64,000 bases of DNA, taken from NCBI GenBank assembly GCA_017499595.2, contig CM039002.1, positions 2,976,001-3,040,000 of the forward strand. Direction: 5' to 3'. Position numbers and translations under genes: made by a program. This DNA is from Psilocybe cubensis. Its lineage: Eukaryota. Positions 24,600-61,473 of this stretch are shown here, piece after piece. The notes beneath the pieces are model-generated. The model was given only the letters and a program-made list of their open reading frames with translations. It made no database searches and was not told the origin of the DNA. Each line of letters starts with the position of its first letter. The first letter of the stretch is position 1.

Positions 24600-27011
24600 A
24601 TGTCAGTTCCTCCCGTAAACTTGGATGCGACTCTGGGGGCAGTATTCGTCGGGAACAGTGTATCTGCCATGTAAGGTCGTCTCCGTTGATGGGGCGCATC
24701 TGAAGTTTATTCTATCTGAACCAAATATGCATTAGGTTATTCGGAGTAACGACCTTCCAGACGTGTATATTCTTCAAGAGAAAGAGTCGAGATGGGAGAG
24801 CGTTCAAGCAGCTGGTACGGAGGGTTCTCTCGGTCAATATATGCGCTATTTATTGATCTTTTTCGCCTATACAGATCGCTCTGTTATGGTGATCTCAACA
24901 GTAGCATTGATGTGTTACATCTGCTTATGCGTCATCTAGGGTATTGGATATGCTGCACATGATATTCATGTCCCATGGCGTTTATCATTACCTGATAACA
25001 AGATTCGGAGACTTTACTGCGTTCGTGTCGCCTACCTGGTGAGTGTCATGTAGAACTATTTAACATATTATCCCAGCCAATCATCTTGACATTCGATAGG
25101 AGTTTACTTGTATGTTGCAGAAATGAGCACGGTGGCATGCACAACTTATCTAGACTTAATCGACATACAGAACCAGGTCATTATCACGGTAAATATGTCG
25201 CATTAATACGAAAACGTCCTCTTTGGAGTCAAACATTTTGTTAATCCAGTGCATAAACGATTTGATAGTCAGATGGTCAGTCTCTTGAGAGCTATCACGA
25301 AAACTTTACTCACGTCCGTTTGCTTTCCACAGCGTGTTCGCTCGCAGAATATGGTTTTGTTCGTTATTTAAATCGTTTTTCCAAGTGTTGTCCCGCTGAA
25401 AGTTTTCTCATGTCAGTAAGCAGAAGAAATAACTTTCTGCTATTCGCCATTGTACGCATCGTTTAAACCAACGTAATAATGCTAGGCCTAACACCCTTGT
25501 TGATAGGTTTCAACCTCATTATTCGTATTTGGTATGTGGCTATTTATGTCAACCACATGAAAACATTAACGGTGTAGAAAATGGGCTCAGCCATGGGCAT
25601 TGGTGAGAACCACAGCCATTGAAGGTTTCGCTCGTCTCACTTTCCACAGCATTCGTAGCAAGAGGGTGATTATCTTCAGGCACCCTACCGATACTACAAC
25701 CCAAATATAACCGATTTCACGTTTCCAGGTTCATTGATATGTCCTTCACCAAGCTCATTAACGAATCCGTAAAATTTATTAAGTCATTTCAGAGTGGACG
25801 GGCGTAGCGCTAAACGGAAATCGTTCTGTTTACATACACAGTGGCTTTTGTATACTGCACTTGGCGGTAGCGTCGTTGCAGACGGACTAATCACTACCTC
25901 GTTGTGTGTACTGCTCAATCGCAATCGCAGCGGTCTCAAAAAGTGAGCATGTGTCTGCTATACTGATTATCCTAATTCGATCAAGCATGATGCGACGCTC
26001 CTTTAAACAGCACAGACTCGTTGATCAATACCTTGATGATGTATAGCATCAATACGGGTGAGCCTTGACATTGTCTTGGGTTGTCAGTTTGCAACGCAGA
26101 GGGCTGACTACGAGGGGTCTATTTCAGGTCTACTCACTTCGTAAGCCTCTAGCTCCTACCTCATCCGTGTCCTCCCACAGCATTATACCCGCCCACGTTC
26201 TTCGATAACAACTGACAAAAATACTCTAAAAGGATCTGCGCAACCGCCTGCTTCGTGACGGTAAGTGCCAATTTTCCACACCTATCGTGTATATACCCCG
26301 AAGGCGGCCGAGTCCCCACGGATCGAAGAGTTCTTAATAATAATAAGAACGCCACAGTGAAACGGGGGATCGGGATGATCGAGTCGATGTCAATTTCTGA
26401 CTGTTTTTTGTCATCTTCTCAAATTCTCCACTCTTTCGTGCGGTTGTGCGTGCGTAACAGTTCGCGATTTGGCCACACCAATTCGTGTTCATGGGAATCT
26501 ACTTCGCTCTCGGAAAATGTGAGTAAGATTCAGAGAGACAGACTTAACGAGCTACAATTGCACACACTCATTCGTCGCTTTTTCCCCATCCGAACGCATC
26601 CTCCCATCCTCCCATCCCACCCGATCGCCTCTTCTTCTCGACGCTTCGAACATTTTCTTCTCACCATCGTGGACACCCGCTCCTGTTGGTGGTGTTTTAT
26701 TTAGTGTATCTCAACAGCCTCCTCGCAGTGCTGAACACCCGCGGAACTCTGCGGAAGCGCATCGCTGGAATGGTGTCCATACCACAATCGCCTTCATCCA
26801 TTGAACCGGTGACCATGAATTTTGCGGACCCTATGGGTACGAATTTTATTGCAGAACAAGAAACTTTGGCAGATGTCGCAAAACCGCATTCGGTATGTTT
26901 CCCAGTTGAACCCCTTCAACTATCAAGGGTACAGGTCTGTCTGACTGGTTTCATCAGTCCAAAATTGCATGGCATCATAACGCTACACACTACTGCATGG
27001 AATACATATGA
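24600..27011 (+). CDS. Multi-pass membrane protein with DUF6534-type domain; about 20 exons
   Basis: Spliced by eye: MSVPPVNLDATLGAVFVGNSVSAM|LFGVTTFQT...DGLITTSLCVLLNRNRSGLK|STDSLINTLMMYSINTG|LLTS|ICA...YFALGK|LYLNSLLAVLNTR. This pattern is typical of the expanded agaricomycete family. Confidence 0.85.
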
Positions 27012-27287
27012 AGTCCCGTCAGGTTTATATACATGATGTTATTTTATTGGACAATTGTAGTCACTCTCAAGACATTTATAATCATTGTTACATTAGGGTT
27101 ACAGGGTATAGATAGAATCATAGAAAACATGAGATGCAAGCGACAATGAGGGTAAAATTACGCAAGACCCGAAGAGACATGGAGTAGATCACAACAAATA
27201 TGTTTCGAGGAGTGGAGAGATACAGCTTACCTGAAAAGAGATAACAATGAGTATAATGTACGATGGATATGTTTTAAGTAGGGTGAG

Positions 27288-27370
27288 GGATCAGCAACAG
27301 GTAATTCAATCAAAGCCGAAGCTCAGAAACAGCTTCTAGTTGATATTTTTTTGAATAGGTTTCATCGGAC
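27288..27370 (-). ncRNA. Box C/D snoRNA targeting the LSU CAGCCTCTAGTTGATA region (snR62/U34-like)
   Basis: C box CCGATGA; TATCAACTAGA(A)GCTGTT antisense element, then CTGA, a GC-TTCG-GC hairpin, C'-like TTGATT and terminal CTGA. Target register is uncertain. Confidence 0.7.
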
Positions 27371-27514
27371 AAAGGGAAAGCGGATATGAAGACAAGAAAT
27401 ATTAAGACGCTTACCTGACTACTAAGATCTTCACGGATAACTACCAAAATCCAACGACGAGTGAAGACTGTGAAATTATGAATCAGTAAAGTGTTAATAA
27501 TCAATGATTCATGG

Positions 27515-27604
27515 AGGATCAGATGGGGTTGCCCGAAAAATTGAGCTGTGGCGGGCACTTTCGGCATGGAAGTACGAAGACCGTCGTGATAAAACATCAT
27601 TCGA
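27515..27604 (-). ncRNA. snR73: Box C/D snoRNA snR73/U35-like (LSU Cm2959 equivalent)
   Basis: C-like ATGATGT; TCACGACGGTCT is antisense to LSU AGACCGTCGTGA; terminal CTGA at 27519-27522; D' box is non-consensus. Confidence 0.78.
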
Positions 27605-27749
27605 AAAAGAAACGGATAAAATATTCACCATTTACGGCGTACGTCCCACCGCACAGAACTTTACATAACAATCCCGATGACCTTCATGAGAACCTGAACG
27701 AGAGGGTTTCATCAGTATACATGTTTCAACACAATAGGTATGAAGAAAA

Positions 27750-27843
27750 GAATCAGTATATTTTAAAAAATACAGCCATGGAATTGACATCAAAGCTGGT
27801 CCGAAAACCAGATCAGGCGGTAATTCCTTTGTATCATCACTTT
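27750..27843 (-). ncRNA. snR77: Box C/D snoRNA snR77-like (SSU Um578 equivalent)
   Basis: Perfect C box GTGATGA; GGAATTACCGC-CTGA is antisense to SSU GCGGTAATTCC, and D'+5 selects the U; internal CTGGT/ACCAG hairpin, C'-like TTGATG, terminal CTGA. Confidence 0.9.
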
Positions 27844-27979
27844 ATAATAATAACAAAATGCTTACCATGTGTATCGGACCATGGCGTAGAGGCGACAGGA
27901 TACTCGTGTCGAATGGTAGGTGAGCAGTAGTCTGTGAGAAAAAATCAGTAAGTGAAAAGGTCATCGAAATTTTTTTCAA

Positions 27980-28060
27980 AATCAGTATGGGTATGATAAA
28001 AGCATCGGGCCCTAAAGCGCTCATATACTCTAGTTTGAATGATTTGATATCATCGTGATA
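27980..28060 (-). ncRNA. snR78: Box C/D snoRNA snR78-like (LSU Um2421 equivalent)
   Basis: C box ACGATGA; TCAAACTAGAGT-at-ATGA (D') is antisense to LSU ACTCTAGTTTGA; terminal CTGA at 27982-27985. Confidence 0.82.
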
Positions 28061-28210
28061 GAGGAATAAAGTCATAACCATAAGAACGTAGTAACTTACC
28101 ATATTGCCCAGTACCACGAAACTAAAATCCTTCCCTCGACAAGCGATACATTGGCTAGAGGCCTAAGGGAGTGGATCATTAGTAAATTGTTTATGAAAAC
28201 ATACAGGAAA

Positions 28211-28304
28211 GCGGTCAGTGTAACTATGACAAAAAGAACACATCGTGTCGATGTCTAGGTATGACTATCGCACTCGATAAAGAATGGAAAATATCATCGC
28301 GCCG
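28211..28304 (-). ncRNA. Box C/D snoRNA, snR63/U46-like (LSU Am2256 equivalent)
   Basis: C box GCGATGA; GTCATAGTTAC-a-CTGA is antisense to LSU GTAACTATGAC, and the D+5 rule selects the second A; short terminal stem CGG/CCG. Confidence 0.8.
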
Positions 28305-28896
28305 AGGAAAAGAAAATGTAAATTGAATGGAAGACGTACTCACCATCGATCTATACAACACATGGTCGCGAAGAACTATCTGTGAGCGGCATTTGAGTAA
28401 CGGACACCGTGCATTGCGCCTAAACGAGGATGTGGTAGAAGGAGTTCTGTTGACGAAAAAAAAATCCACGGTTTTGTGGTCACGCTGAGTTTAGGGCAGG
28501 CTCAAAGTATTACATAATTACACGTCACGTGCCCATGGGCGCAATGGCGGGCGGGGCCACCCCAATGCTCTTGCACACTCTTGCTCCCGTCTTTCACGTC
28601 CGAAATTTGCATGTAGTTGCAATAGTGCTGTCGAAAGGTAGAATGGTAATTGGTATAACTTCGTGCAGACTAGAACAACAGATCGTCATAATACCCGGTG
28701 AAACTCCAAAACCCAGTGTCCAACGAGGCCTCGAACCGCTCATGAAGAGCGGCAATCTGAGAGGAATCCTTCTCAAAGATGCTATTATCTAGGCGCTGGA
28801 ACACCTCATGGCTTGGAAGAATTCTGACGAGGTCATTCAGGCTTCCCAATGGCCGTTTACAGTTGTGATGCGCTTCGAAGCCAAAGTTTATGTCTG

Positions 28897-38167: not shown

Positions 38168-38692
38168 GCTTGCTCTGAGAATACAACACTTTAATTAGAT
38201 GCATAAAATCTACCAATCACCGTTGAACGTACATTTTCCAACAGAAACTCCAGGCCTGTCAATCTTCTTGCGTTTCTTCCTCCAGTTGAAAGGGTTATAT
38301 ACGTAAGTTTAAATCAGTCCAACAGAACCTTACAGCTTGTCCCATGGAACAAAGTGGTTGGTCAAGAATGGTGGCAAGGGGCGAAGACGGAGCGGAGCGA
38401 GAAACTCAGGGGGAGTCAACCACGTGACTACAGTCACGATGTGACCTCGCTTTCGTGACTGTACCCGGCCTGCCGGACCTGGTGCCCTTTTAATTCTTCC
38501 CCACAACCTGTACGCCATTAGCGCGGCTAGATTCTATATACCTTCATTTTTACGGCTTTTAATAAAGGGATATACTCTGTACACGCATTCAAGGCTCACA
38601 GCGGTGAAAGGAACCCTCGAATACTCCCAGGCGTGTAGTCAAGTTGACAGTCTACGCGAATACCGAACGCGTTTTCAACCTCAACCAAAACT

Positions 38693-56151: not shown

Positions 56152-56380
56152 CACTGCGGGCAATGACTGCTGTAAGTTGAACAAAAAGCCATTGTTTTAC
56201 ATGTTTTATGTAAGTTCAGCTGTAAGTTTAACATACAGCCTACTTACACTCAAATATTCTCCTTTTATGGAAATTATTTGAGTGTAAGTCATGATGTATG
56301 TCGAACTTACAGCTGAACTTACATAAAACATGTAAAACAATAGCTGTTTGTTTAACTTACAGCAGTCGTCGCCCGCAGTG
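56152..56380. mobile_element. Non-autonomous foldback MITE, CACTA/EnSpm(CMC)-like
   Basis: 229-bp near-palindrome with termini CACTGCGGGC...GCCCGCAGTG, flanked on both sides by CCT (3-bp TSD). Confidence 0.88.
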
Positions 56381-59148: not shown

Positions 59149-61473
59149 ACATCCAGACGTCTGGTTTAGGTTTATTACTATTTTATTCTTAATGTATTTT
59201 TTGTTCAGAGGACTAGTACAGTGTGGTACTTTTGTTTGATAAATTGGACGGCTAATGGACCTTTGGCAGTATTACAATCATCAATAAAACTTGTTCATGC
59301 AGGTTGACGTTTTGAGAAAATTTCAACAGACTAACAGGAAAGAATCGAGTGTATGCAGCTCTGTTGAGTTCTTTCTGGATGTCAGAAATAGTTTGTATAA
59401 ATCTATGGTTAGACAGGGATAAAACTGTATTGCCGACATAACAGCAGGAGACATAGCCCAATTAAATATCTGTAATTGAGTGAGCCCTGAGGGCACCTCA
59501 TCATTTAGATGACCGGTGAACATGTGTTTTGGGAGCGTAGAAGTGACGCTACTCAATGATGCATCCCCCTCTCCGAATGCGTCATAATCAGGCATACAGC
59601 AAAATTGGATTCATGGTTAACGTATTATTACAAATTTATTCATTCTAGAGAGGGGTGTTTTTATGAATTGTCCGCTTTTTCACTGAAGGGAAGCCAGATA
59701 TAATTAAAAATGATGCGATACTCAATGCCTGTTCATTGCCTCACAATGTAAGAGACTGTCCGTGACTTTTACACCATTTAGAAGCAAAGGGCTAGCATAC
59801 AGGCCTACAGTATATGAGTAGTAGTAGCCAGAGAAACCTTCCAGTATAGATGAGCCGCAAGGTCGCCCCGCTAGGATTAATGATGGTCTCCCACTACCAA
59901 TGCCATTCAATGATTTCAGGATTATCAAGGGAGTTCATCCGAATTCACCCCAAATCATTGTAAATATATACTGCCGCTTAGCCTCGCCGGATCATGATTG
60001 TAGCACCGCACCCATGTCAAGAGTCTGTGATTTTTAGTAGCAAAAGAAGACTACTGGTTCCTTTTGGCGCATTAGAATTAAATTTTTTATCTTTTATTTC
60101 TGATCCACTGACCTACTAAAATGGGCGCTTACTATACCTTGATGATCCTTTATTTTTCAGTATTTTCTGTCAGAAATCAACACAGTTCCACGGTATCAAG
60201 GTTCTCCGAGAGTCCCACCCTAGCTGGAGCTTCACGTGCACTTCGCGGTCGAAATTCCCGCTAAATCGACCACGAGTCCCATTTGAACAAGAAAGTGGCC
60301 TAATCCGGGTTGTGGGTCAATTGCACCCGCTGATAGAAGTCCGATCATGGGAAAATATGTTATAGCTGTGACATTTCTCAGCCACTGCCCCTAGAACTCT
60401 CGTGCTGTCGAAAACCTTGCTGTCTCAATATTCGCTAAGGACCCCACCACTTGGCTATGAGCGGGCGGACACCCGCCAAAGTTGTATCCCGCCATCCATT
60501 ACTCCGACCTTGCTCAGTTCATCCAAATAGCTCCCGCCACGCGTTGCGGCGCAGTCAGACTTCATCACTCGAGTTGAACTTGCGCACAGTGTGCTGTTTC
60601 TACCTTACACATGCTACTTTTGAAAACAATTGGCGACCGACGACTTTCAACTGTCCAGCTTGTCGTTACTGAATTATTTTGACGACACATGGGAGTATGA
60701 GAGAGAGTTATGAAGTCACCGGATCGATGCTGGGCCAATCAACTTGGTCACGGAGGGTCTCAAGTTCCGTTCTTTGTTTCTCAGGTTCTGACTATTTTAA
60801 AAAATGGGTCTGAACCAATCGACATGATCACCATTTCAAGGGATTACAGAAAATATACTTCTTCTGGTAAGTCTGCTCTTACAGAGTAGCCTCTTTCAGA
60901 CAGAAACCTTCGCTGATTCATGCTGATAGTATATTGCCTCCGGAAAAACTAGGCTCGGCCCAATCCCGAGCCCAGGAGCCCACCAATCCGCAGAAATCCG
61001 TTGTCGATTCTACCTTACAAGGAAGGAAACGTTTTGATGCCTCGCCACTCGGTTGATGGAGCTATGGTGGTATAAAAGAAGGTGTAGATTCATTGCTTAT
61101 AGTCAGAGAAACAGCCTCTACACTCGCTGAGCAGTTACATACATTATCCCAGATTTCCATCTTCAGAGGCATCCAACCTTGGGATATACCCTTCAACCCC
61201 CCATCGCTGATACTTTCGACCGTCGCTATCACACAATCACACGATCACCGCATCTTTGCTGACACAGGTTCGCAATCACCTGACAAATGTAAGCCCCCAC
61301 ATCCAACCCTACCCCCCAATTATTGTGGGTCCAGTCCCAGTATAGTTATCTATTTTTTTCTTTCGCATTTCGCCGTTGATAATCCACAATCACTCACGGC
61401 GATCTTTTCTTTTGTTATCTCCCCCTATGCCCATTCCCTTATAATCTTGAAATCCGATGGCGGTGACCTCAAG

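Follow-up and report, generated by a model that had tools for sequence, protein, structure and literature searches.

A probable non-coding snoRNA host gene of the UHG/GAS5 type in Psilocybe cubensis, with a box C/D snoRNA in each of five introns

Background

The question raised by this locus is which part of a spliced minus-strand transcript is its product, the exons or the introns, and, if it is the introns, what they encode. The locus lies within a 64,000-nucleotide stretch of Psilocybe cubensis DNA (the window; all positions are counted from its first letter), and the neighbouring ORF matches a Psilocybe cubensis protein at 100% identity. An initial annotation, made from the sequence alone, had read it as an exon/intron array whose introns carry box C/D guides from the snR72-78 cluster, with an snR63-like and an snR62-like guide added at the two ends. 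Published work already describes UHG-like clusters with intronic snoRNAs, among them remnants of snR72-78 in Basidiomycota (PMC3596301 and PMC2780460, in the sections cited here). The locus type is not new: the arrangement is known in fungi and is found here in a mushroom-forming species. A literature search on Psilocybe and snoRNA together found no paper.

Extent, exons and introns of the host gene

The host gene comprises six exons on the minus strand, from 28434 to 27049 (about 1.4 kb of seemingly unannotated sequence). Contigs of runs X10 and X11 bridge the five intron intervals given below. The skipped segments have CT..AC ends on the plus strand, which equal GT..AG on the minus strand, and the proposed exon/intron array was thus confirmed by five GT-AG introns that are spliced out in these contigs. 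The two runs belong to one study and were labelled RNA by guess; no run recorded as RNA contains the stretch.

Exon 1 (28344-28434, minus strand, as are all the exons and introns that follow) is represented by record 3 of X10 (28344-28434) and record 7 of X11 (28344-28399); its 5' boundary is a lower bound, the exon reaching at least out to 28434. Intron 1 (28163-28343; 181 nt, GTGAGT...TTAG, branch site TACTAAT) has its joint at 28161/28344 in both X10 and X11; a strain difference at 28162 makes its ends appear as CC..AC and leaves a single letter between. The spliced contigs delimit exon 2 (28100-28162, 63 nt), exon 3 (27866-27931, 66 nt), exon 4 (27629-27693, 65 nt) and exon 5 (27415-27467, 53 nt). 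Introns 2 (27932-28099, 168 nt; joint 27931/28100) and 4 (27468-27628, 161 nt; joint 27467/27629) show CT..AC ends in X10 and X11. The junction of intron 3 (27694-27865, 172 nt; joint 27691/27864, cut +2) was observed in X11 only, whereas the other introns were seen in both runs or with agreeing ends. For intron 5 (27231-27414, 184 nt) the joint is at 27224/27409 in X10 (cut +6, both = 10) and the loose ends in X11 agree with it. Exon 6 (27049-27230) is represented by record 2 of X10 (27096-27224) and record 5 of X11 (27049-27234), and just past its mapped part the sequence reads AATAAA at 27048-27043.

Intron 5 is flanked by a 10-nt direct repeat, TCAG/GTAAGC, compared with 1-3 nt at the other four introns, so that joining exons 5 and 6 recreates a consensus 5' splice site where they meet. 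This recreated site could serve as a recursive splice site or as a decay signal.

The functional product might be the spliced RNA itself, as a micropeptide mRNA or lncRNA in which the snoRNAs are mere passengers. A 54-codon ORF begins at the last ATG of exon 1, ATG ends four of the five exons, and the recreated 5' splice site can be counted on the same side. However, the ATGs upstream of this ORF lie in other frames, and the exons change fastest between strains and are unalignable in organism D, a distant relative. No ATG-started ORF longer than 54 codons occurs in the spliced RNA. We consider a functional exonic product very improbable. The properties of a UHG-like host were all observed, namely a spliced multi-exon RNA with one snoRNA per intron and without a long or conserved ORF, and with high confidence we regard the locus as a spliced, non-coding, minus-strand snoRNA host gene of the UHG/GAS5 type.

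Box C/D snoRNAs and their complementarity to rRNA

Each of the five introns contains one box C/D snoRNA (sno1 to sno5). The C boxes are GCGAUGA, ACGAUGA, GUGAUGA, AUGAUGU and CCGAUGA, three of the five having the form CGAUGA rather than UGAUGA (consensus RUGAUGA), and a CUGA D box is present in all of them, the two boxes being 75-88 nt apart. The C box lies 25-46 nt from the 5' splice site. From the D box it is 50-60 nt to the 3' splice site and a uniform 35-42 nt to the branch site. Terminal stems beside the boxes appear weak or absent, the flanks showing at most 2-3 possible pairs. The five antisense strings named in the initial annotation were all found on the minus strand as claimed, and each intron does combine C/D boxes with an exact 11-12 nt rRNA complement, which adjoins the D or D' box.

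The LSU and SSU references used were L048 (RF02543, 2876 bits) and L124 (RF01960, 1790 bits), respectively; the rRNA references are metagenomic or contaminant eukaryotic sequences and not this species' own rRNA. The LSU references were fished with the sno1 and sno2 complements and the SSU primer contained the sno3 complement, therefore only the matches of sno4 and sno5 are independent of the fishing design. At least 109 metagenome contigs carry both LSU fishing motifs at a spacing of 155 nt, and the universal 18S primer pattern detected 49 contaminant eukaryotic SSU loci in genome contigs and none in viral contigs. An exact complement of at least 11 nt to LSU or SSU was present in all five snoRNAs, while none of 2000 shuffles gave five (mean 0.33, maximum 4). 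When a core of nine base pairs was strictly required over guide positions 3-11, sno1 to sno4 passed and sno5 failed by one mismatch. The only other 11-mer complementary to rRNA across the host gene is at 27045, in the last exon.

A G.U-permissive duplex scan was rejected in favour of stricter scans, as it yielded dozens of meaningless 10-13 nt matches. The non-guide halves of sno1, sno2, sno4 and sno5 gave no convincing target in LSU, SSU or partial 5.8S. A pairing of the sno2 D guide with SSU G719 was not trusted, this being a variable region of the foreign SSU, and neither was an alternative sno3 box with an LSU match. An 11-mer complement to the sno5 site at 61120 (minus) in the window has no nearby C box and was taken as a chance match.

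Rfam, against which the initial annotation proposed to check the snoRNAs, gave a divided answer: guide families were matched below threshold, but no match in the whole window reached a gathering score (best 23.5 versus 36 bits). As all five snoRNAs fall below the gathering scores, routine annotation would miss them. The sub-threshold alignments, to SNORD35, Afu_300/snoR77Y, SNORD46, snR78 and SNORD95/Z119, all lie on the minus strand with the register correct. A weak match to the Giardia U1 family at 38399-38501 was without a U1-like 5' end and was discarded.

Identities and predicted targets of sno1 to sno4

The snR63/U46, snR78, snR77 and snR73/U35 identities given in the initial annotation are borne out by the sub-threshold Rfam alignments, by LSU spacing and by target sites placed by mapping against the part of N. 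crassa Table 1 cited here, to which all N. crassa positions below refer.

The U46/snR63-like sno1 (28215-28300, minus) has its C box at 28300-28294, a D guide at 28230-28220 and its D box at 28218-28215. It aligns locally with SNORD46 (RF00218) at 15.6 bits (gathering 40), with 18 of 18 letters identical over guide and D box. The guide is an exact 11-mer complement to L048 2001-2011 in which position 5 pairs with A2004, and it is predicted to target the LSU A that corresponds to N. crassa 26S-Am2218. According to Table 1, CD33 of N. crassa is a D guide with the homologues snR63/U46.

The snR78/U52-like sno2 (27982-28056, minus) has its C box at 28056-28050, a D' guide at 28038-28027, a D' box AUGA at 28024-28021 and its D box at 27985-27982. 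Its full-length alignment with snR78 (RF01176) scores 18.5 bits (E 0.6; gathering 48), and the guide-to-D' register agrees; snR78 is a D' guide for 25S-2421 (PMC5824354). The exact 12-mer complement to L048 2167-2178 places U2169 opposite position 5, so the putative target would be the LSU U equivalent to N. crassa Um2383 and yeast 25S-2421. The LSU spacing between A2004 and U2169, 165 nt, matches that between N. crassa 2218 and 2383.

For sno3 (27753-27840, minus), which is snR77/snoR77Y/Afu_300-like, the C box is at 27840-27834, the D' guide at 27827-27817 and the D' box CUGA at 27816-27813, followed by a UUCG hairpin (27811-27796), a C' box UGAUGU (27792-27787) and the D box (27756-27753). 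It scores 22 bits with Afu_300 (gathering 40), 17.1 bits with snoR77Y (gathering 52) and 21 bits with snoZ157, and has the guide GGAAUUACCG followed by CUGA in common with Afu_300/snoR77Y; a 13-nt AU-rich stretch between the Afu_300-shared element and the D box counts against the assignment. The exact 11-mer complement to SSU L124 570-580 pairs position 5 with U574, which makes the counterpart of N. crassa 18S-Um575, a U in the 530-loop region of the SSU, the probable target.

The U35/snR73-like sno4 (27519-27601, minus) has the C box AUGAUGU at 27600-27594, a D' guide at 27589-27578, a degenerate D' box CGUA at 27576-27573 and its D box at 27522-27519. Its 5' half, including the guide, aligns with SNORD35 (RF00211) at 23.5 bits (E 0.021; gathering 36). 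The guide is an exact 12-mer complement to L048 2740-2751; with L048 a2730, c2732 and C2743 anchored to N. crassa 2904, 2906 and 2917, respectively, the LSU C equivalent to N. crassa Cm2917 is the predicted target. As the initial annotation had also stated, the locus contains no guides for the snR76, snR75, snR74 and snR72 sites.

The fifth snoRNA

The last snoRNA, sno5 (27291-27368, minus), resembles N. crassa CD28/U95/Z119. It has its C box at 27368-27362, a 19-nt D' guide at 27345-27327, a D' box CUGA at 27326-27323, a GC-UUCG-GC hairpin, a C' box UGAUUGA and its D box at 27294-27291. The 11-mer 27345-27335 pairs with L048 1638-1648, and the whole guide faces 1630-1648 with an A x C mismatch at 27334 and a G.U pair at 27327. 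The mismatch falls on guide position 8 and faces a C shared by all 22 LSU contigs compared. When L048 A1634, A1648, U1655 and G1696 are equated with N. crassa 1845, 1859, 1866 and 1907, respectively, the canonical CUGA register is predicted, from base pairing, to point to A1634, the equivalent of N. crassa Am1845 and the CD28/U95/snoR33 site, which lies 21 nt upstream of the snR62 site. The alignment with SNORD95 (RF00189) scores 12.6 bits (gathering 55), with 17 of 19 letters identical over guide and D box, and that with snoZ119 (RF00361) 18.5 bits (gathering 70). In the portions of the sources cited here, N. crassa CD28, human SNORD95 and plant Z119 all have, like sno5, GCUGUUU followed by CUGA directed at the same LSU adenosine; sno5 differs from them by a G-to-A change at guide position 8 and by an extra 11 nt of collinear pairing, and is without a guide for the second CD28 site, N. 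crassa Am1859.

The initial annotation took the fifth snoRNA for a homologue of snR62/U34, and the sno5 11-mer does pair with LSU merely 7-17 nt upstream of the snR62 site. That site (N. crassa Um1866) is, however, L048 U1655, which fits all four anchors; the guide stops at 1648, and no D' box stands in register for U1655. The locus has no complement to the immediate surroundings of U1655, and the 8-mer matches within 25 nt of it are sno5's own guide and one inside the sno2 guide. An snR62 homologue is thus scarcely credible, and the initial interpretation holds for the host gene and four of the identities and fails for the fifth.

A second alternative is that the D' box of sno5 is a degenerate CUGU (27332-27329), which would methylate the LSU U six nt downstream, L048 U1640. 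Read this way, guide positions 3-13 form 11 uninterrupted Watson-Crick pairs and the mismatch moves to position 2, where it is tolerated; moreover, the 11-nt extension of the guide appears too long for idleness, and degenerate D' boxes occur elsewhere in the locus (AUGA in sno2 and CGUA in sno4). CUGU nevertheless lacks the GA required for the kink-loop, a canonical CUGA is found 2 nt beyond it, with a UUCG hairpin and a C' box after it exactly as in sno3, and the SNORD95 and Z119 consensus sequences have GCUGUUUCUGA in common in the CUGA register. We consider the CUGU register unlikely, though deserving of attention, and retain sno5 as a U95/CD28-like snoRNA, which may have shifted to a new methylation site via its extended guide. 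The U1640-equivalent site is not among the sites in the cited part of N. crassa Table 1.

Conservation and variation

Alignment of a 15.5-kb contig of organism D (X12) at 80% or above is confined to the five snoRNA blocks, which are 92-98% identical, and a part near the start of the gene. The blocks have the same order, with gaps of 165, 147, 142, 158 and 157 nt in organism D against 141, 153, 146, 155 and 160 nt here. The block at sno1 is 28212-28279; sno4 with its flanks is identical at 96 of 98 positions and sno5 at 79 of 81. In the sno3 hairpin the three changes of organism D keep all pairing, as judged by eye. In a close relative, 15 of 25 substitutions fall in exons (285 of 1028 nt) and 2 in snoRNA bodies (326 nt; P = 0.0056). 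Exon 3 varies most between strains, with 7 substitutions at 27882-27914 in X8. Conserved introns beside drifting exons make a clean textbook pattern that can be used to find more genes of this kind.

These data also bear on whether the snoRNAs are chance resemblances, or the locus a protein gene on the plus strand. That strand does contain an ORF of 139 aa (27511-27930), but it belongs to no Pfam family, the splice sites have minus-strand polarity, conservation tracks the snoRNA blocks rather than the ORF, and the shuffles never gave five of five. We give this explanation practically no credence; it is already refuted by the splicing, the organism D alignment and the shuffles. A Pfam search with six neighbouring or overlapping ORFs found no family.

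The alignment near the start covers 28440-28462. Beyond 28462 the loose end of X12 agrees with the window once more, by eye, over three stretches of 9, 7 and 8 letters without a difference. This conserved promoter-proximal block (28463-28497, minus) contains a telomere-like CCCTAA box at 28496-28491, CGTGACC and CAAAACCGT. The CCCTAA box may act as a Tbf1-type site or telo-box.

Proposed mode of production

Transcription of the minus strand by RNA polymerase II would start near 28440 and run to about 27049, and the spliceosome removes the five introns of 161-184 nt, a step shown by the spliced contigs. After debranching, exonucleases would shorten the excised introns as far as the box C/D core, guarded by Snu13, Nop56, Nop58 and fibrillarin, giving five snoRNAs of 75-88 nt; we infer debranching and trimming from the snoRNA family and the uniform D box-branch site distance. 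Pairing of the snoRNAs with pre-rRNA would direct 2'-O-methylation to the nucleotide that faces guide position 5, counted upstream from the D or D' box, and the spliced exons would be a by-product with no coding role.

Alternatively, the snoRNAs might come from their own promoters or from endonucleolytic cutting of a polycistron, with splicing incidental, a route with a precedent in S. cerevisiae, where snR72-78 is processed without splicing (PMC3596301, in the section cited). Yet all the snoRNAs lie inside confirmed introns at a uniform distance from the branch site, and the only conserved promoter block seen is upstream of exon 1. There is little to commend this route, and we favour release from the spliced introns.

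Discussion

When the snR78-72 cluster arose is in dispute, for the sections of PMC3596301 and PMC5824354 cited here disagree on whether it predates Ascomycota, and the locus provides an Agaricales data point. Most likely, snR78, snR77 and snR73 owe their linkage and order to the host gene from which the ascomycete snR78-72 cluster also descends. The ancestral order and the joining of two guides at the ends, both proposed in the initial annotation, are reasonable readings. By our own arithmetic, taking the about 55 box C/D families reported in the cited part of the N. crassa work, the chance that three of five members come from a seven-member cluster is about 1/100, or about 1/500 if they are collinear, which speaks against an origin of the cluster only at the root of Ascomycota, as stated in PMC5824354. 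The introns with the U46-like and U95-like snoRNAs are probably, though by no means certainly, lineage-specific members. The 10-nt repeat at intron 5 is the footprint predicted by the 'excision-and-insertion' model of mobile snoRNA introns, as described in the cited section of PMC3596301. A tentative proposal, to which we give less than even weight, is that an snR78-72 host gene older than the Dikarya survives here as a living remnant, with membership turning over intron by intron.

The snoRNAs of mushroom-forming fungi slip past routine annotation; an Rfam-based survey of Pleurotus ostreatus lists only seven snoRNAs in the section cited (PMC5040776). The present locus adds five predicted, testable rRNA methylation sites, including the U95/CD28 site, which is without a guide in budding yeast.

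Among known systems, the closest is the intronic cluster I of fungi (N. crassa, Basidiomycota and Zygomycota), which, in the account of PMC3596301 cited here, likewise has a non-coding multi-exon host with poorly conserved exons, short ORFs and one box C/D snoRNA per intron, and carries snR78, snR77 and snR73 in the same relative order. Here only three of the seven members (78, 77 and 73) are found, versus the full order 78-77-76-75-74-73-72, and snR78 has one guide only, whereas N. crassa CD5 carries the snR72 element as well. In addition, U46/snR63-like and U95/CD28-like snoRNAs occupy the first and last introns, whereas in N. crassa, according to the cited part of the source, they are on chromosomes III and II and the cluster is on VI. 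The S. cerevisiae snR72-78 polycistron shares the guides 78, 77 and 73 in the same order, but has no introns and no splicing-based processing (PMC3596301, section cited), and the cited part of N. crassa Table 1 gives no S. cerevisiae homologue of the U95-type guide. As in the mammalian UHG and GAS5 genes, there is no long conserved ORF, the functional products would be intronic and the snoRNA-branch site distance is fixed; the locus is more compact than these genes, with introns of 161-184 nt and exons of 53-66 nt, and has a promoter with a telomere-like box.

Transcription and splicing of the snoRNA host gene

Sequence reading of the 28434-27049 region on the minus strand revealed five introns with consensus fungal signals, namely 5' ends of the form GTGAGT, GTAAGT, GTAAGC or GTGAAT, a branch site of the TACTRAT type and a 3' YAG, and the exons between them are short (53-66 nt). 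Of 14 sequencing runs listed, 12 contain the locus wholly or partly, and four were aligned at 80% likeness. Contigs from X10 and X11, two runs of one study whose RNA nature is a guess (no run is recorded as RNA), join exon to exon over 27231-27414, 27468-27628, 27932-28099 and 28163-28343, and 27694-27865 is likewise skipped, in X11 contigs only. Four of the five skipped parts are bounded by CT..AC on the plus strand, corresponding to minus-strand GT..AG; the remaining one was listed as CC..AC with one letter between, owing to a strain difference at 28162. Since five canonical introns are removed exactly, these contigs derive from spliced minus-strand RNA. This shows that the host gene is transcribed and spliced on the minus strand, and the exon/intron array described in the initial annotation is borne out at all five junctions. 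Exon 1 extends to at least 28434 and the last exon to at least 27049, directly before AATAAA at 27048-27043. In the joined exons no ATG-started ORF exceeds 54 codons, and the 54-codon ORF is preceded by ATGs in other frames. The plus-strand ORF 27511-27930 and five neighbouring ORFs matched no Pfam family.

A 10-nt direct repeat, TCAG/GTAAGC (27415-27418/27409-27414 and 27231-27234/27225-27230), flanks intron 5, so that splicing regenerates a consensus 5' splice site; at the junctions of the other four introns the shared sequence is just 1-3 nt long. The repeat could have been left behind by an inserting intron, or it could be a recursive-splice-like site. The downstream exon is retained at the exon 5/6 junction in the assembled contigs of the guessed-RNA runs.

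A convergent plus-strand transcript with its own 61-nt intron (26896-26956, GTATGT...ACAG) abuts the 3' end of the host gene. Judged from loose contig ends, the two 3' ends (at least 27077 for this transcript, at least 27049 for the host gene) meet or overlap by a little.

Conservation of the introns and of the upstream region

In run X8, from a close relative, one contig spans 27525-28552 with 25 substitutions, 15 of which lie in 285 nt of exon and two in the 326 nt occupied by snoRNA bodies (binomial P = 0.0056 for two or fewer); one of the two body changes replaces the first C-box purine by the other purine. A single 15.5-kb DNA contig of a distant relative (organism D, run X12) aligns only at 27289-27369, 27511-27608, 27762-27843, 27990-28056, 28212-28279 and 28440-28462. 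Its snoRNA blocks carry 2, 2, 6, 2 and 2 differences, and the spacers between blocks are of similar length (165, 147, 142, 158 and 157 letters versus 141, 153, 146, 155 and 160 in the window) with unalignable sequence. Such a pattern, in which introns are conserved while exons drift, is the signature of snoRNA host genes. By eye, three of the four changes listed in the intron 3 snoRNA fall in its internal UUCG hairpin, and all of these preserve pairing (U.G to C-G, G-C to G.U, U-A to U.G).

By eye, three further stretches of the organism D contig past 28462 are identical to the window (9, 7 and 8 letters), marking a conserved promoter block at 28463-28497 on the minus strand. A telomere-like CCCTAA box lies inside it on the transcribed strand (28496-28491). 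We take the block to resemble the Tbf1 or telo-box sites found in promoters of snoRNA and ribosomal-protein genes. CGTGACC and AAAACCGT motifs occur in it as well, and transcribed sequence is first observed about 30-60 nt downstream.

Anatomy of the intronic snoRNAs

The snoRNAs of introns 1 to 5 (sno1-sno5, in transcription order) measure 86, 75, 88, 83 and 78 nt from box C to box D. The distance from the 5' splice site to box C is 25-46 nt; box D stands 50-60 nt away from the 3' splice site and 35-42 nt away from the branch adenosine. Such uniform spacing is a requirement of splicing-dependent processing. Terminal stems are weak.

In sno3 the sequence AUGGCUGU (27757-27780, minus strand) is common to Aspergillus fumigatus Afu_300 and plant snoR77Y, where it stands directly upstream of the D box; a 13-nt AU-rich insertion parts it from the CUGA box in sno3, which may reflect the disabling of an ancestral second guide. 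The 3' half of sno4 (27523-27560, minus strand) is a non-guide part with a GCCCG/CGGGC stem and is 98% conserved in organism D. None of the references (LSU, SSU and partial 5.8S) offered it a target; it may act as an orphan guide or be a structural element.

Predicted rRNA targets

The five antisense strings reported initially are present on the minus strand at 28230-28220, 28038-28027, 27827-27817, 27589-27578 and 27345-27335. The rRNA references were metagenome or contaminant loci from public collections, not the host species' own rRNA. An LSU pattern that joined the sno1 and sno2 complements across a gap of 140-170 nt matched at least 109 metagenome contigs, with a span of 177-178 nt in nearly all matches listed, and Rfam identified two such loci as LSU rRNA (L048, 2876 bits; L003, 2853 bits). 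The sno4 complement, outside the pattern, was found 40 times among the 109 loci listed, 54 of which reach at least 900 nt downstream; the sno5 11-mer is present in 6 of these 109, 74 of which reach at least 450 nt upstream. A universal 18S primer pattern gave no match in viral contigs and at least 49 contaminant loci in prokaryote assemblies, two of which (L124 and L134) carry complete SSU rRNA.

These loci (L110-L158) are at least 49 contigs filed as bacterial genomes or MAGs that bear the eukaryote-specific primer site. All four contigs checked were eukaryotic SSU rRNA, which points to contamination of prokaryote assemblies.

All five snoRNAs have an exact complement of at least 11 nt to L048 or L124, a result reached by none of 2000 shuffles (mean 0.33), three of the five matches being built into the search patterns. 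By the fifth-nucleotide rule and a 9-bp core test, which all four pass, the predicted targets are LSU A2004 (sno1, D guide), LSU U2169 (sno2, D'), SSU U574 (sno3, D') and LSU C2743 (sno4, D', position set by anchors). The available part of a Neurospora crassa study lists Am2218 (D guide, snR63/U46), Um2383 (D', snR78/U52), 18S-Um575 (D', snR77), Cm2917 (D', snR73/U35) and Um1866 (D', snR62/U34) (PMC2780460). On that numbering the 165-nt spacing of A2004 and U2169 in L048 equals that of 2218 and 2383, and the same offset puts the snR76 site on C and the snR75 site on G, both as required. Cm2917 falls on C2743 when the anchors a2730 and c2732 are equated with N. crassa 2904 and 2906; therefore the sno4 D' box is CGUA, a register shared with the SNORD35 consensus.

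Rfam gave alignments to the expected families, but none in the window reached the gathering score. The sub-threshold alignments agree with the site names: SNORD35 (23.5 bits), Afu_300 (22 bits), snoR77Y (17 bits), snR78 (18.5 bits, full length) and the SNORD46 consensus (18/18 identical over guide and D box). Target mapping and Rfam thus concur on the snR63-like, snR78, snR77 and snR73 guides proposed initially. At the locus no complement of at least 8 nt adjoins a box for the snR76, 75, 74, 72 or 62 sites, in keeping with the earlier view that guides 76, 75, 74 and 72 are missing here.

A relaxed Rfam scan of the whole window yielded no further snoRNA candidate. A MITE-like element or a hairpin RNA locus could lie at 56200-56335, where a near-perfect palindrome of about 130 nt (a long hairpin) matches plant and animal miRNA precursors below threshold on either strand (37.7 and 35.3 bits). 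At 38420-38465 on the plus strand, CACGTGAC, CAGTCACG and CGTGACTG form a Homol-D-box-like motif cluster in inverted arrangement, which is probably a promoter. A Giardia-U1 match over it is spurious, resting on these motifs.

The fifth snoRNA

The fifth guide had been taken as snR62-like, and this did not hold. Over 19 nt the sno5 guide (27345-27327) runs collinearly with L048 1630-1648, with one G.U pair and one A x C mismatch (27334). Next to it come a canonical CUGA, a GC-UUCG-GC hairpin and a C' box, in that order, a layout as in sno3. Guide position 5 pairs with A1634. The anchors A1634, A1648, U1655 and G1696 agree in nucleotide type with N. crassa 1845, 1859, 1866 and 1907, so the canonical sno5 target is predicted to be the CD28/U95 site, in the available text a D'-guided Am1845 with no yeast homologue (U95/snoR33) (PMC2780460). 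An alternative anchor mapping breaks at the fourth anchor. Rfam supports the assignment (SNORD95 guide and box matched at 17/19; snoZ119 at 18.5 bits). The locus has no guide for the snR62 site, which maps to U1655; the only complements lying 25 nt or less from that site are the sno5 guide (pairing with 1638-1648) and one 8-mer within the sno2 guide.

sno5 fails the 9-bp core test because of its one mismatch. The mismatched C is invariant in all 22 LSU loci with a recognisable flank, and therefore the guide is imperfect, perhaps compensated by 11 extra pairs. If a degenerate CUGU served as the D' box instead, the duplex would be a perfect 11 bp and the target U1640; set against the canonical CUGA and the SNORD95 alignment, we consider this the less likely reading. 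With the CD28/U95 site as predicted target, one guide is re-assigned from snR62 to U95/CD28.

Comparison with published clusters

An ORF 2 kb upstream of the locus gives a product 100% identical to an NCBI protein named from Psilocybe cubensis, which bears out the initial placement in Agaricomycetes. A literature search found no paper pairing 'Psilocybe' with 'snoRNA'. The locus is a further fungal intronic snoRNA host gene, ordinary in kind, and the finding is real and well supported; standard annotation thresholds miss it. The N. crassa study, in its available part, describes UHG-like hosts with ORFs of 159-267 bp (PMC2780460). The snR78-72 cluster was analysed across fungi including Coprinopsis, Phanerochaete and Ustilago; as far as the accessible sections go, its snoRNAs in Basidiomycota are all intronic, in non-coding and poorly conserved hosts, with 78, 75 and 72 relocated and 73, 74, 76 and 77 missing in some species (PMC3596301). 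On the contrary, an excerpted account has the cluster arise at the root of Ascomycota from scattered genes (PMC5824354). As these portions present the two views, the P. cubensis locus fits the former rather than the latter.
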